From: Armatimonadota bacterium
GTDB lineage: Bacteria; Armatimonadota; SYMT01
NCBI GenBank assembly: GCA_041690135.1
Contig: JAWLHY010000002.1
Span: 384,001-448,000 of the forward strand
DNA: 64,000 nucleotides
Direction: 5' to 3'
Position numbers and translations under genes: made by a program. Of the stretch, positions 2,832-61,405 are shown piece after piece (the stretch's first letter is position 1; each line of letters begins with the position of its first letter). Under the pieces are notes generated by a model that saw only the letters and a program-made list of their open reading frames with translations, did not search any database and was not told the origin of the DNA.

Positions 2832-4298
2832 ATGGCACATCGCAAAGGTGAGTTCTGTGGGCGGACGCGCCGCCAGTTCCTGTGGGAGACCGGCTGCGGG
2901 TTTACGGGTACGGCGCTGGCGGCCATGCTGGGGGAGGACGGCTTCCTGGGCACGCAGGCGGTCGCCGCGGACGGGAAGACGCCTTTCAAGAACCCTCTCG
3001 CCCCCAAGGAGCCGCACTTTAAGGGCAAGGCGAAGTCGGTCATCTTCCTCTACATGTACGGCGGCCCCAGCCAGATCGATACCTTCGACTACAAGCCGCA
3101 GATGAAGGGGATGGACAACAAAACGGTCCAGGTGAAGACCTTCGGCCGCGGCGGCCACAAGAACGTCGGACGGATCGTGGAGCCGCGCTGGAACTTCAAG
3201 CAGTACGGTCAATGCGGCAAGTGGGTGTCGGACCTCTTCCCCCACCTGGCGAAGCACGTGGACGACATCGCCTTCATCCACTCGATGACGGCCGATTCCC
3301 CCATACACGGCTCCGCCATGCTCCAGATGAACACGGGCAAGATCCTGAGCGGCGCGCCCTGCCTCGGCTCCTGGGTGAACTACGGCCTGGGTACGGTGAA
3401 CCAGAACCTGCCCGGCTTCGTGGTGATGCTCGACCCGCGCGGCGGGCCCATCAGCGGCGCCAAGAACTGGAGCAGCGGTTACATGCCGGCCTACTACCAG
3501 GCCACGATGATGCGCTCCAGCGGCACCCCGATCCTCGACCTGAAGCGGCCGGCGGGGCAGACGGAGCAGGTGCAGCGCCGGATGCTGGACGCCCTCCAGG
3601 AGTACAACGAGGAGCACCAGCGACCCCGCGATTTCAACTCCAACCTGGCCGCCCGGATCGCGAGCTACGAGCTGGCGTTCAAGATGCAGGCCACCGCGCC
3701 GGAAGCGGTCGATCTCGCCCAGGAGAGCGAGAAGACCAGGGAGCTGTACGGCCTCAACGATAAGCGCACCGAAGTATTCGGCCGCCAGTGCCTCCTCGCG
3801 CGGCGCCTGGTGGAGCGCGGCGTGCGGTTCATCCAGCTCTACTCCGGCGGCAACCACGTCGATACGACCTGGGACGCCCATAACGACCTGAAGACGAACC
3901 ACGATCTCCACGCGGGTGAGACGGACCAGCCGATCGCCGCGCTGATCCAGGACCTGAAGCAGCGGGGTATGCTCGACTCGACCCTGATCGTGTGGGGCGG
4001 CGAGTTCGGGCGTCAACCGACCGCCGAGTACTCGGAAGGGACCGGTCGGGACCATAACTCCTACGGCTTCACCATGTGGATGGCCGGCGGCGGCATCAAG
4101 GGCGGGGTGAGCGTTGGCCAAACGGACGAACTCGGCAGCGCCGCGGTGGAGGATCCCTTCCACGTGAAGCACCTCCACGCCACGATCCTCCAGTGCCTGG
4201 GCTTCGATCCGAACCGCCTCTCGTACTTCTACGGCGGCCTGGATCAGAAGCTCGTCGGCGTGGAAGGCGCGGAGCCGATCCACAAGGTCCTGGGCTGA
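2832..4298 (+). CDS. DUF1501 family protein (Tat-like RRQFL)
   Basis: KAKSVIFLYMYGGPSQIDTFDYKP, LLARRLVERGVRF, WGGEFGR, GRDH motifs; GGAG RBS before ATG 2832; usual partner of DUF1553 proteins. Confidence 0.92.
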   Translation: MAHRKGEFCGRTRRQFLWETGCGFTGTALAAMLGEDGFLGTQAVAADGKTPFKNPLAPKEPHFKGKAKSVIFLYMYGGPSQIDTFDYKPQMKGMDNKTVQVKTFGRGGHKNVGRIVEPRWNFKQYGQCGKWVSDLFPHLAKHVDDIAFIHSMTADSPIHGSAMLQMNTGKILSGAPCLGSWVNYGLGTVNQNLPGFVVMLDPRGGPISGAKNWSSGYMPAYYQATMMRSSGTPILDLKRPAGQTEQVQRRMLDALQEYNEEHQRPRDFNSNLAARIASYELAFKMQATAPEAVDLAQESEKTRELYGLNDKRTEVFGRQCLLARRLVERGVRFIQLYSGGNHVDTTWDAHNDLKTNHDLHAGETDQPIAALIQDLKQRGMLDSTLIVWGGEFGRQPTAEYSEGTGRDHNSYGFTMWMAGGGIKGGVSVGQTDELGSAAVEDPFHVKHLHATILQCLGFDPNRLSYFYGGLDQKLVGVEGAEPIHKVLG

Positions 4299-11766: not shown

Positions 11767-13071
11767 TTACGCTCCTGCCGCGAGGCGTGCGAGGAGTTCG
11801 CCCTGGGGCAGGGTTTCCTGACCGCCCCCCTCCATATCCTTGAGCGAGGCGACCCCCTGGGCCACCTCATCCTCGCCCAGGATCACCACGTAGCGGGCGT
11901 TGACCCGGTTCGCCGCCCGCATCTGCGCCTTCATGCTGCGAGCGCGGTAGTCGGTGTCCGCCGCCACCCCGGCCTGCCGCAGGTCGTTGAGCAGCTTGAG
12001 CCCCGGAAGCCGCGCCGCGTCTCCCAGCGTGACCACGAAGACCGGCCGCCGTGCCTCCACGGGGAATTCCACGCCCAGTGCCTCGCACGCCAGGAGCACC
12101 CGCTCGATCCCGCAGCCGAAGCCGATGCCGGGCGTCGGCTCCCCACCGAGATCCTCCACCAGGCCGTCGTACCGGCCCCCGCCCAGGATCGTCGACTGCG
12201 CGCCGAGGCCGCTGTGCGTGATCTCGAAGCTGGTCTTGACGTAGTAGTCAAGGCCCCGGACCAGCCGCTTGTTGCGCACGTACTCCACACCGAAGGCGGC
12301 CAGCGCCTCCTGCACCGCCGCGAAGTGGCCGGCGCAGCTCTCGCAGAGGTGATCCACGATGTCGGGGACCACCGGCTCCAGCACGGTCCAGTCTTCGAAC
12401 TTGCAGTCCAGGATCCGCAGCGGGTTCGTCTCATAGCGCCGCTGACAGTTGCCGCACATGGAGCCGATCCGCTCCCCAAGGGCCTGCCGCAATGCTTCAC
12501 GGTAGGCCGGCCGGCATGCCGGGCAGCCCACGCTATTCAGTTCCGTCCGCTCGCCGCGGATACCGACCCGGTGCAGGTAGGTCAGACCGAGGGCGATCAC
12601 CTCCGCGTCCAGGGCCGGGTCATCGCTGCCCAGCGCCTCGATACCCGTCTGGTGGTGCTGCCGGAGCCGTCCCTTCTGCGGCCGCTCGTACCGGAAATTC
12701 GGCGCAATGTAGAACAGCTTGGTCATCGGCGCCTCTTTGCCCAGGCTGTGCTGGATGTAGGCGCGCAGTGTCGGCGCGGTTCCTTCCGGCCGGAGCACGA
12801 ACGTCTCCCGCTCCTTCTTCTCTCCGGCGTCGTCCGACTCGCCCGCTTCGGACGGCTTCCCCCCGGAGACGCTGAACATCTCCTTGGAGACGATGTCGGT
12901 GTGCTCTCCCACGGCCCGGACGAACAGGTCCGTCTGCTCGAACGCGGGCGTGCGGATCTCTTCATAGCCGAAGTCCGCACAGGTGCGCCGGAAGGTCCCT
13001 TCCACATAACGCCAACGGGAGACTTCCACCGGCAGGATATCCTGGGTTCCTCTGGGGGCTTTGTATTTCAT
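11767..13071 (-). CDS. hisS: Histidine--tRNA ligase
   Basis: PRGTQD, LRPEGTAP, FRYERPQKGRLRQHHQ, LVRGLDYY, GGGRYDGL motifs; anticodon-binding domain. Confidence 0.97.
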   Translation of the reverse strand: MKYKAPRGTQDILPVEVSRWRYVEGTFRRTCADFGYEEIRTPAFEQTDLFVRAVGEHTDIVSKEMFSVSGGKPSEAGESDDAGEKKERETFVLRPEGTAPTLRAYIQHSLGKEAPMTKLFYIAPNFRYERPQKGRLRQHHQTGIEALGSDDPALDAEVIALGLTYLHRVGIRGERTELNSVGCPACRPAYREALRQALGERIGSMCGNCQRRYETNPLRILDCKFEDWTVLEPVVPDIVDHLCESCAGHFAAVQEALAAFGVEYVRNKRLVRGLDYYVKTSFEITHSGLGAQSTILGGGRYDGLVEDLGGEPTPGIGFGCGIERVLLACEALGVEFPVEARRPVFVVTLGDAARLPGLKLLNDLRQAGVAADTDYRARSMKAQMRAANRVNARYVVILGEDEVAQGVASLKDMEGGGQETLPQGELLARLAAGA

Positions 13072-13083
13072 GATCCAGCCTCA

Positions 13084-13153
13084 TCAATTGCAAACTGCAA
13101 ATTGTCAATTTCAAATTTCAAATTTAAAATTTGCAATTCTCAATTTGCAATGT
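13084..13153. repeat. AT-rich heptamer array (consensus about CAATTT/G) in the hisS 5' UTR
   Basis: tcaattg caaactg caaattg tcaattt caaattt caaattt aaaattt gcaattc tcaattt gcaatgt. Confidence 0.85.
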
Positions 13154-13189: not shown

Positions 13190-13226
13190 AAAAAAGCCGC
13201 GGCGGCCCGGAAGGGCGCCGCGGCTC
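13190..13226 (-). terminator. Intrinsic terminator (candidate attenuator) upstream of hisS
   Basis: Minus strand GAGCCGCGGCGCCCTTCCGGGCCGCCGCGGC-TTTTTT. Confidence 0.85.
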
Positions 13227-13249
13227 GAAACGGGGCGACTGCGGAACGA

Positions 13250-13345
13250 TCAGCAGGCGCGCGCGAGCCGCGGCTCACCGTGAAGGTGTCCGTGATGCGC
13301 CCGCCCGGCATCGGCCGACCTGCGTTCCAACGTGCAGTCGTACAT
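13250..13345 (-). CDS. Putative His-rich leader peptide MYDCTLERRSADAGRAHHGHLHGEPRLARAC (31 aa)
   Basis: 4 His codons within 6 codons; lies upstream of hisS and of a terminator; ATG 6 nt after a -10 box. Confidence 0.7.
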   Translation of the reverse strand: MYDCTLERRSADAGRAHHGHLHGEPRLARAC

Positions 13346-13351
13346 CGCACA

Positions 13352-13381
13352 ACTATAGCACGAGCAGCTTTCCAGGGTCAA
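13352..13381 (-). promoter_or_regulatory. sigma70-type promoter TTGACC-18-TATAGT with extended -10 TG (hisS leader)
   Basis: Minus strand ttgaccctggaaagctgctcgtgctatagt-tgtgcg-ATG. Confidence 0.7.
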
Positions 13382-13480: not shown

Positions 13481-13700
13481 TCCTTGTAGTCAGGAGAATC
13501 AGTAGGAGATGTTAGAGATTAGGACAAGCGGCCAGGCCGTGTGGAGGCAGACAACACAGAGGATGGCAGTCTCCACCTTCCCCGCGGCACTATGCGCTGC
13601 CCGTCCGGTAGACGCTCTTGAACGAACGATCTGCCAGTGGCGCGTGCGTCCGGAGACAACGATCCGGCGCCAGGCTCATGACAGTCACCAGGAAACGCCG

Positions 13701-14783
13701 ATGCCTCTCATTCTCACAAGACTTCTCAAGGCCTCCAACGCCATTCCCATCGGAGTGGCGTTGGGCCTGGCCTTAGCGGGGGGACCGGTCTGCGCACAGA
13801 CCGTACCTGCATCCTCGGGCGCGGATGGCGCCTTCAATGCTGCCGGCGACGTAATCCTACCCGCCGGCACCTACAACTTCACCACCTTCAACATCGCACC
13901 CGGAGCCACCGTAACCGTGGCGGGAAGCGGCGTGCTCGACATCCGGGTACAGGGCACTGCCGTGATCGAGGGCAGCCTGAGGCTTGACGGCCAGAATGGG
14001 AGTAACGGAGGGGTGAACACGGCTCTTCCGGGTGCGGGAGGGAGTGGTGGCGGTGGAGGCGGGGCGGCCGGCGGAGTGGGCGGCTATTATGCGGGTGTGG
14101 GGCAGAGTGGTTCCGGTCCCGGAGGGGGCGGAAGTGGAGCGAATTCTGCCGACGGTGGAGGCGGTGGAGGGGGTGGGCATGCCGCTCCGGGTGCTAACGG
14201 TGGTAACGGGCTTTACTTCGATACTGGCTTGATCGGCTCCGGGGGAGCCGGAGGGGCAGCCTATGGAGTAACCGCCTTCACCGAGTTGGCCGGAGGGTCC
14301 GGAGGCGGCGGTGGTGGCTACGGCAGCGCGTTCAACGGTTCGGGAGGCGGAGGAGGTGGCGGTGGCGGGGCCGTCCGGATTGCCGCCTCGCAGCTTCAGA
14401 TCGCCGGAGCGATCACTGCCAACGGCGGGAACGGCGGGAACAATGCCGCTGGTACCGACGGCGCCGCCGGCGGGGGCGGCAGCGGGGGCATGGTCTGGCT
14501 ACAGGCGTCTTCGGTCATTCTCTCGGGCGTGGTTCAGGTGAACGGAGGGCTCGGCGGCACGGCTTCCGCGACTTCCCGCGGCACTCCCGGAGCGGGCGGA
14601 AACGGCGCACGGGGTCGAGTCCGGATTGACACGAATGCCCTCACCGGTACGGCTCCAGCGGGAACTTACCTGTCTGAGTATCCCCTGGACGCCTCGGCCG
14701 TGCCGGAACCCGGGGCACTTTTCCTCTTTGCCGGCGCCCTTCTGCCACTTGGGCTCATTGCAAGACGTCGCTCCGGCAGGTAG
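13701..14783 (+). CDS. Glycine-rich PEP-CTERM surface protein
   Basis: Signal peptide (..GPVCAQ); GGGGG-rich repeats; C-terminal VPEP-GALFLFAGALLPLGLIA-RRRSGR. Confidence 0.88.
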   Translation: MPLILTRLLKASNAIPIGVALGLALAGGPVCAQTVPASSGADGAFNAAGDVILPAGTYNFTTFNIAPGATVTVAGSGVLDIRVQGTAVIEGSLRLDGQNGSNGGVNTALPGAGGSGGGGGGAAGGVGGYYAGVGQSGSGPGGGGSGANSADGGGGGGGGHAAPGANGGNGLYFDTGLIGSGGAGGAAYGVTAFTELAGGSGGGGGGYGSAFNGSGGGGGGGGGAVRIAASQLQIAGAITANGGNGGNNAAGTDGAAGGGGSGGMVWLQASSVILSGVVQVNGGLGGTASATSRGTPGAGGNGARGRVRIDTNALTGTAPAGTYLSEYPLDASAVPEPGALFLFAGALLPLGLIARRRSGR

Positions 14784-61363: not shown

Positions 61364-61405
61364 GAAATTTGCAATTTGCAATTTTCAATTGTCAGTTTGC
61401 AATCT
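61364..61405. repeat. AT-rich heptamer array (third copy of the CAATT family)
   Basis: gaaattt gcaattt gcaattt tcaattg tcagttt gcaatct. Confidence 0.8.

Follow-up and report, generated by a model that had tools for sequence, protein, structure and literature searches.

A candidate leaderless histidine leader-peptide attenuator upstream of hisS, and a paralogous leader upstream of hisHAFI, in a family of Armatimonadota

Introduction

In Escherichia coli attenuation at pheM-pheST, as in the T-box control of hisS in Firmicutes, a low level of charged tRNA raises expression of the synthetase through suppression of a terminator. The pheM reading frame is led by a Shine-Dalgarno (SD) sequence. A T-box (RF00230), by comparison, reads uncharged tRNA directly and requires no translation, and there is no T-box match at the hisS gene described here. 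Several related systems are on record. The HisL leader peptide of E. coli is 16 residues long and is encoded with a run of 7 contiguous His codons, and its transcript forms a 14-bp terminator stem followed by a U run (PMC10989985). In Bacillus, a His leader peptide has been predicted before a hisS paralog (hisS*) and before hisZ (Naville and Gautheret 2010, PMC2965389). For mycobacteria, a preprint describes leaderless poly-Cys small open reading frames (sORFs) in which ribosome pausing unmasks a downstream ribosome-binding site (bioRxiv 10.1101/834739), and the Corynebacterium ilvBNC leader is presented as an actinobacterial case of a leaderless sensor sORF (PMC11857589).

The locus described here precedes hisS of a soil bacterium of the Armatimonadota (GenBank assembly GCA_041690135.1, contig JAWLHY010000002.1) and lies in a stretch of 64,000 nucleotides, the whole of which was analysed and is called the window below. 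Like enterobacterial hisL, it has a short His-rich peptide, a terminator with a U run, and alternative pairings predicted to sense His-tRNA. A second leader in the same genome, before hisH, has a hisL-like layout of 17 codons with 6 His and a stop two codons after the His run. Unlike hisL, the hisS leader does not match RF00514, its His codons are interspersed, and its start, which lacks an SD, is predicted to be leaderless. The segment that we call region 2, moreover, lies inside the open reading frame (ORF) of the hisS-type leaders, 4 to 6 codons before the stop, and the targets are hisS and hisHAFI, with hisG and hisD not covered.

The Bacillus hisS*/hisZ leaders are alike in being sORF attenuators with His codons before a gene of the HisRS family and in having two His-related targets per genome, and they too are computational predictions. 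There, however, a T-box remains on the main hisS and the leader stands on paralogs, whereas here the sole detected hisS carries the leader; the Bacillus case also belongs to another phylum, and a leaderless start is not described in the part of the article that is available. The actinobacterial leaderless sORFs resemble ours in being unannotated, in standing at the 5' end of the transcript (a prediction here), in being rich in the cognate codon, and in placing several loci under one signal, termed a "ribulon." They differ in that our locus has an intrinsic terminator 118 nt before hisS in place of unmasking of a ribosome-binding site, would sense His and not Cys, and has a synthetase among its targets. 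In view of the published Bacillus hisS-paralog leader (PMC2965389) and the mycobacterial leaderless sORFs (bioRxiv 10.1101/834739), the element is less novel than it was first taken to be.

We found no description of the hisS leader element itself in the literature on hisS leader peptides and attenuation or on Armatimonadota attenuators. The understanding of the attenuation mechanism would be left unchanged by it. What it would do is to bring leader-peptide attenuation of the classical type to a phylum whose regulatory biology is almost unrecorded, to suggest that an essential single-copy synthetase gene may share its sensor with the matching biosynthetic operon, and to add candidates from outside the actinobacteria to the leaderless sensor sORFs.

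Architecture of the hisS leader

The hisS gene (11767..13071, minus strand, ATG at 13071) encodes a histidine--tRNA ligase of 434 amino acids, assigned through Pfam and TIGR00442; its product scores 453 bits against the latter, for which the cut-off is 287. It is the single match to this enzyme in its own genome, G000, which comprises 9.1 Mb in 25 contigs at 65% G+C. Since the upstream neighbor (13509-14783, plus strand) is divergent from hisS, the 437-nt intergenic region belongs to hisS.

Within that region, and on the minus strand throughout, a TTGACC -35 hexamer (13376..13381), read directly from the sequence, is followed after an 18-nt spacer by an extended -10 element, TG-c-TATAGT (13352..13360), the hexamer of which (13357-13352) ends 6 nt before an ATG. 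The promoter is thus where the original prediction had placed it. A promoter scan rated it at 10/12 with the extended TG, and the leader region contained 2 promoter-like sites compared with 0.2 expected from shuffles. The transcription start site (TSS) would fall at 13345 or an adjacent position.

The ATG at 13345 opens an ORF of 31 codons plus TGA (13250..13345), encoding MYDCTLERRSADAGRAHHGHLHGEPRLARAC. Its presumed sensor is the cluster CAT CAC gga CAC ctt CAC (13280..13297), and the H-H-G-H-L-H previously read at codons 17 to 22 was confirmed, with His at codons 17, 18, 20, and 22. Two segments of the ORF are predicted to take part in the switch. Region 1 (13285..13304), drawn from the RNAalifold consensus of our covariance model R1, is the His-codon stretch that would pair with region 2 as an anti-antiterminator. 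Region 2 (13257..13279) would pair either with region 1 or with the 5' arm of the terminator; it has the core GCCGCGG (13274-13268), in which the in-frame CCG CGG makes up codons 25-26, and it includes codons 24-27 (GAGCCGCGGCTC, 13276-13265). A small inner hairpin over the sORF stop codon (13235..13260), enclosed by the antiterminator, appeared in constrained folds, and its equivalent is predicted in 7/7 hisS leaders. Regions 3 and 4 form the GC-rich intrinsic terminator hairpin (13195..13226; -29.2 kcal/mol alone), followed by a T6 run (13190..13195) whose first T closes the stem. This terminator had been located about 120 nt before hisS, and the distance from the T run to the hisS ATG is 118 nt. 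The intervening sequence holds an AT-rich palindromic dispersed repeat (13087..13151), which is outside the conserved cassette, and the hisS SD, GAGG (13079..13082).

Distribution in relatives and a second leader on hisHAFI

The cassette, consisting of promoter, immediate ATG, His-rich sORF, in-frame CCG CGG, and terminator, precedes hisS in 4/7 genomes of the family (G000, G004, G005, and G006). In the last three, the -10 box stands 7 to 8 nt before the ATG, the sORF has 25 to 31 codons, of which 2, 4, and 5, respectively, are His, the in-frame CCG CGG comes 5 to 6 codons before the stop, and a CCGCGG hairpin with a T run follows; the two His codons of the G004 leader are non-adjacent. Reading of the upstream regions revealed no hisS leader in G001, where hisS abuts lipA, in G003, where a tRNA gene is upstream of hisS, or in G002. 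A metagenome scan yielded four further contigs with hisS genes 73 to 80% identical, three of which have the cassette, with His at 6 of 25 (L111), 5 of 26 (L112), and 5 of 25 (L113) codons. The fourth contig, L109, has hisS without the cassette. Altogether, homologous sORFs of 17 to 31 codons were present in 11 other leaders.

Beyond these, a DNA profile of the seven hisS leaders, run with nhmmer on 170 loci, matched no further leader, duplicate records aside. The covariance model R1 was built from eight leaders and searched against 61 genomes of the phylum; wherever the leader unit occurred, the gene directly following it on the same strand was hisS or hisH. Outside the family the only R1 matches were in G016 and G040, at about 30 bits, and these were rejected as bare terminator-like stretches without a His sORF. 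Likewise, His-rich sORFs sought before some 100 more distant hisS loci proved to be scattered ORFs without the cassette. Standard annotation would miss these sORFs of 17 to 31 codons and their terminators; R1 finds them, so far within the family only.

The hisH leader was found as a weak hit of the DNA profile elsewhere in the own genome. It reads TTGACG-17-TATAAC-7-ATG, continues with a sORF encoding MLSRFQFHHASGHHHHR up to its stop (17 codons, 6 of them His), and ends in a CCGCGG terminator. The hisH gene begins 42 nt past the terminator and is followed by hisA, hisF, and hisI; each of the four exceeds its NCBIfam cut-off. Leaders precede hisH in 5/7 family genomes (G000, G002, G003, G004, and G005). 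The R1 search gave His counts of 7 in 26 codons for G005, 5 in 25 for G004, and 5 in 28 for G003, and its stricter filters missed the leader of G002, which encodes MLFNPVPLHHHRRPGHEPGCIARAPVA up to the stop and was found by reading the upstream region. None was seen in the upstream region of hisH in G001 or in G007, a member of another family in which hisH has an ordinary SD-led start, and in G006 hisH itself was not found with the query used. In the own genome, hisG and hisD have no His leader. The hisS leader is paralogous to the hisHAFI leader of the same genome. With this cassette on hisHAFI as well, synthesis of histidine and its charging onto tRNA would come under joint control. A FastTree phylogeny of the 12 leaders was poorly supported (0.18 to 0.81), and the order of the hisS/hisH leader duplication is therefore not derivable from it.

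Promoter position and the leaderless start

The close apposition of promoter and start codon is uniform among the leaders. In 12/12, the -10 hexamer ends 6 to 8 nt before the ATG of the sORF and no SD-like motif is found upstream, and in 10/12 a TTGAC(C/G/T) hexamer occurs at a spacing of 17 to 19 nt. The sequences upstream of the -35 hexamer are unrelated among loci, which shows that the promoter belongs to the conserved unit. Within the genome, only 7 sORFs were found whose ATG directly follows a strong promoter, and 2 of them are the His leaders. Genome-wide, the extended -10 motif had no peak 6 to 8 nt before the ATG of long ORFs, and there was no sign that leaderless mRNAs are common. The predicted leaderless start of the leader sORF is well supported by comparison.

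The leaders can also be tied to the genes that follow them. The stretch from terminator to gene contained no sigma-70-like promoter in 12/12 leaders. The spacers measure 51 to 62 nt in 4/7 hisS leaders and 3 to 92 nt in the hisH leaders. In the remaining hisS leaders repeats have stretched them: the window has 118 nt, L003 about 206 nt, and L112 397 nt, and an unrecognised promoter may lie in these longer spacers. The repeat in the window (13151-13087) is 65 nt long, AT-rich, and palindromic, forms a near-perfect hairpin, and has 12 other matches in the genome; it is absent from the spacers of relatives. The metagenome contigs L109 and L112 have the upstream gene and the promoter in common, and in L109 the promoter is fused directly to the post-terminator spacer of L112, the sORF-terminator unit being cleanly missing. 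As L109 retains the promoter without that unit, this promoter is the one facing hisS.

Codon content and reading frame of the leaders

The sORFs are unusually rich in His codons and are so in one frame only. Of the 284 in-frame codons in the 11 leaders of the model alignment, 54 are His; the two alternative frames contain 3 and 5 CAY triplets, and the His background in long ORFs of the genome is 2.7%. Four or more His codons were found in only 0.5% of 33,616 random ATG sORFs of 17 to 35 codons from the own genome. The positions of the His codons shift among leaders and their number stays high, the G004 hisS leader with its 2 excepted, as expected for selection on codon content and not on peptide sequence. 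Alignment of relatives, which had been suggested as a check, accordingly recovered in-frame His codons in every hisS leader (2 to 6 per leader) with the remaining peptide varying. Lengths from ATG to stop differ by whole codons. Such length changes, together with the frame bias, appear to be the marks of a translated frame selected for its codon content.

The CCGCGG core is kept in 10/11 aligned leaders, and the codon before it specifies E, V, W, A, or G and always ends in G. A varying codon with a constant final G before CCG CGG points to a constraint that probably acts at the RNA level. The CCGCGG palindrome occurs in three copies per leader. For the leader as a whole, chance is excluded mainly by the conservation of the arrangement in relatives.

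RNA structure and the antiterminator

Covariation was assessed across 11 leaders for the terminator. Pairing extends to 90% of its cells, with compensatory changes in 5 pairs, among them one from G-C to A-U in L113; only 3/500 shuffles reach this value. The terminator stems therefore do covary among the leaders of relatives, as the original prediction would have it. For the helix of regions 1 and 2 and the terminator taken jointly, 85% of cells are paired with 12 compensatory pairs, a value reached by 0/500 shuffles and compared with 31 to 57% pairing in slid controls, these counts being favored by the fit of the alignment to the model structure. Under the same fitted alignment, helices 1-3 between regions 1 and 2 are 82 to 83% paired, and helix 2 is compensatory in 4/4 pairs. 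The switch had been proposed without the region 1/region 2 helix. Its overall geometry is supported by the comparison, and with that helix added the modeled leader would have the classical four-segment design.

The pairing between region 2 and the 5' arm of the terminator had been given as 10 nt for codons 24-27. The complementarity is present and is somewhat longer, with 11 contiguous pairs between transcript nt 72-82 and 119-129, a length that 10/500 dinucleotide shuffles reach. In the window, the duplex amounts to -29.2 kcal/mol compared with -21.8 +/- 2.6 kcal/mol in shuffles (fraction 0.010). Across leaders, the antiterminator register has 80% of its cells paired, compared with 33 to 52% when slid, and the duplex beats 500 shuffles at a fraction of <=0.05 in 6/12 leaders and fails to do so in the other 6/12. 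The antiterminator has no covariation above shuffles across leaders, because its core is an invariant palindrome. On the alignments at hand, the putative antiterminator is a conserved complementarity only.

Folding with a ribosome footprint imposed, another check that had been suggested, gave a largely concordant result. In 7/7 hisS leaders, the antiterminator formed with the footprint on the early His codons and did not form with the footprint at the stop (-25 to -44 compared with -5 to -9 kcal/mol), a contrast to be read with its control, in which shuffled intervening segments paired with the 5' arm nearly as often (mean 8 to 10 of 11 to 17 arm bases; z -0.4 to -3.7). The proposal that stalling at His codons frees codons 24-27 would hold for the first His codons, at 17 and 18. 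It does not hold for the last one, codon 22, which in the window precedes region 2 by 6 nt; a ribosome stalled there masks region 2 in the constrained fold, and the first His codons are consequently the effective sensors. Minimum free energies of the full-length leader favor the terminator even with a stalled ribosome, both in the window and in L002. Given that the terminator is thermodynamically favored under a stall, the switch must be kinetic, as in classical attenuators.

Proposed mechanism and alternative explanations

We consider it probable that the leader is a ribosome-mediated transcription attenuator that tunes the only detected hisS to the supply of charged tRNA-His. This is the reading of the original prediction, and the comparison with relatives lends it support. 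Transcription would begin with the A of the ATG that opens the sORF, or with a neighboring base, yielding a leaderless mRNA on which a ribosome could load once the 5' end emerges. When His-tRNA is plentiful, the ribosome would pass the His codons and region 2 and reach the stop, and the terminator would form. With no ribosome present, region 1 would pair with region 2, and the terminator (regions 3 and 4) would again form. In either event most transcripts would end at about 13190. When His-tRNA is scarce, the ribosome would stall at codons 17 and 18, covering region 1 and leaving region 2 free. Region 2 would then pair with the emerging 5' arm of the terminator (11 bp, enclosing the small hairpin), and RNA polymerase would read into hisS. 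For the hisS leader we infer the TSS, the translation and stalling in the sORF, which of the alternative structures forms, and how the cell responds.

Three other explanations deserve consideration. The promoter, sORF, and terminator might make up an independent small unit encoding a small protein or a small RNA, with hisS served by a promoter of its own that goes unrecognised in the spacer. The long spacers in the window (118 nt, with the AT-rich repeat), L003 (about 206 nt), and L112 (397 nt) would fit such a separation. Attenuator-derived RNAs and leader peptides of Sinorhizobium, too, can act in trans according to two reports (PMC6614838 and PMC7298713), and the peptide has a loosely conserved shape, M..RFQ followed by G-H-x-H-G-x-P-R. 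The conservation in the C-terminal half, however, lies at the nucleotide level, CCG CGG remaining constant as neighboring residues change. Nor does the placement of the unit suit independence: in 61 genomes it was never found except directly ahead of hisS or hisH and on their strand, four hisS spacers are as short as 51 to 62 nt and those of hisH run from 3 to 92 nt, a sigma-70-like promoter is missing from 12/12 spacers, and L109 keeps the promoter where the sORF-terminator unit is gone. We regard an independent unit as unlikely.

Still less credence attaches to the two explanations that keep the link to hisS and alter the mode of control. In one, the terminator is governed by a bound protein or by uncharged tRNA, in the manner of TRAP or HutP or of a T-box, and the ORF is incidental. 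The conserved CACGG...CCGCGG could be a binding site, and T-box-like elements do occur elsewhere in the genome (88.8 and 88.5 bits). Against this, no Rfam family matches the window region at E <=10 or six further leader loci at E <=1, the position of the start codon beside the promoter is constant in 12/12 leaders, and the in-frame His bias (54 compared with 3 and 5) together with length differences in multiples of three requires translation; we therefore think control by such a ligand very improbable. In the other, the sORF acts on the translation of hisS or on mRNA stability, or the hairpin is a constitutive partial terminator. The mycobacterial leaderless Cys sORFs act on access to a ribosome-binding site (bioRxiv 10.1101/834739), and the terminator here is very stable and favored in full-length folds. 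Yet a GC-rich hairpin followed by a T run, as is typical of intrinsic terminators, closes each of the leaders, and the complementarity of region 2 to the terminator arm is conserved. In the window, moreover, at least 100 nt separate the hisS SD from the leader structures, and the leader is not predicted to pair with it. The chances of this kind of action seem to us just as slim.

If the attenuator reading is adopted, a wider picture can be sketched, and we offer it tentatively, at somewhat less than even chances. The leaders might constitute a family-wide histidine ribulon, a portable cassette of promoter, leaderless His-rich sORF, three-way switch built on the palindrome, and terminator that was copied between hisHAFI and the sole hisS and gained or lost among close relatives (L112 compared with L109). 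If true, the leaderless start would make the coupling of the first ribosome to RNA polymerase obligatory without a dedicated pause site, and with CCGCGG present three times in each leader, a single sequence could act as regions 2, 3, and 4.

Other leaders and T-boxes in the genome

Rfam at gathering score returned 0 matches over the whole window, T-box included. At E <=10, neither RF00514 nor RF00230 matched between 12900 and 13700, where the only matches were chance-level snoRNA and miRNA models on the AT-rich hairpin, and neither matched at E <=1 in six other leader loci. Genome scans anchored on terminators or on promoters, which required an ATG start and T runs and were non-exhaustive, turned up Thr-, Trp-, and Ser-rich candidates that lay inside ORFs or had no plausible target and were set aside.

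Besides the His leaders, one candidate from these scans was convincing. This third cassette of like style reads TAGGCT-7-ATG, a sORF encoding MISRLTLCPIAIISSVN up to its stop, and hairpins, and is followed by IlvA (NF006390, 607 bits). Its sORF has Ile at codons 2, 10, 12, and 13, and the leader contains nested complementary segments and a strong terminator. T-boxes had been cited as the alternative used by Firmicutes. The organism is not a Firmicute, and its genome has two near-threshold T-box matches on other contigs (88.8 and 88.5 bits compared with a gathering score of 93). One of them precedes an ORF whose N-terminus we take to be that of an acetolactate synthase large subunit. The leader-peptide style and the T-box style thus coexist in this genome, and on the wider picture sketched above, the Ile version on ilvA would suggest that the leader style is general in the lineage alongside T-boxes.

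Other predicted attenuators and T-box-like elements in the genome

There are two further predicted leader-peptide attenuators in the genome from which the window is taken. On the minus strand of contig C5 (C5:202507-202645, corresponding to 4008-4146 of locus L172), a His leader with the sORF MLSRFQFHHASGHHHHR-stop has its terminator 42 nt before hisH-hisA-hisF-hisI, and is a paralogue of the leader that precedes hisS in the window. The other is a leader with Ile codons at C2:1234595-1235987 (locus L171), in which TAGGCT-7-ATG opens the sORF MISRLTLCPIAIISSVN-stop. Complementary segments nested within one another follow, and a strong terminator lies directly upstream of ilvA, encoding threonine ammonia-lyase (NF006390, 607 bits). 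This is a second predicted attenuator built in the same style as the His leader of the window.

The genome also contains two T-box-like matches, both just below the Rfam gathering score of 93 for the T-box. The match at C13:135397-135757 (locus L189, plus strand, 88.8 bits) lies about 60 nt upstream of an ORF whose N terminus resembles that of an acetolactate synthase large subunit. The match at C22:48092-48338 (locus L190, minus strand, 88.5 bits) has as a possible target an ORF that begins about 970 nt downstream and whose first part resembles a class I tRNA synthetase.

Surroundings of hisS in the window and in relatives

The 5' UTR of hisS holds one copy of an AT-rich palindromic repeat of about 65 nt (window 13087-13151, units TTGCAAATT / AAATTTGAAATT), which lies 5 nt upstream of the Shine-Dalgarno sequence. 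The repeat exceeds 75% A+T in a genome of 65% G+C, has a predicted fold that is a near-perfect hairpin, and gives rise to chance-level miRNA and snoRNA matches in Rfam. It occurs at about a dozen dispersed sites in the genome, among them window positions ~61365-61403, C13:22894-22958, and C1:1613633-1613710. Its possible identities are a small mobile element, a REP-like element and a protein-binding site. Divergent from hisS is a plus-strand gene (window 13509-14783), the 424-amino-acid product of which had no match in Pfam or NCBIfam.

In G005, another genome of the same family, the spacer of about 200 nt from terminator to hisS contains a long inverted repeat, CGTATTCCGTGTCGCGTATTGCGTAGCG ... 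CGTTACGCAATACGCGATACGGAATACG (L003:1295-1500); this palindromic element is another insertion at the position occupied by the AT-rich repeat in the window. In two contigs of close relatives from a single metagenome, L109 and L112, hisS is preceded by repeats of the TTCGCGTGTTTCGCGGGC type that extend over about 400 nt. Comparison of their hisS upstream regions showed that the upstream gene and promoter are common to both, and that the sORF-terminator unit is present in L112 only and absent from L109. Among the closest relatives, three MAGs carry the label Actinomycetota or Actinomycetes in public records; a genome search groups them with Armatimonadota, and they look like mislabelled bins.
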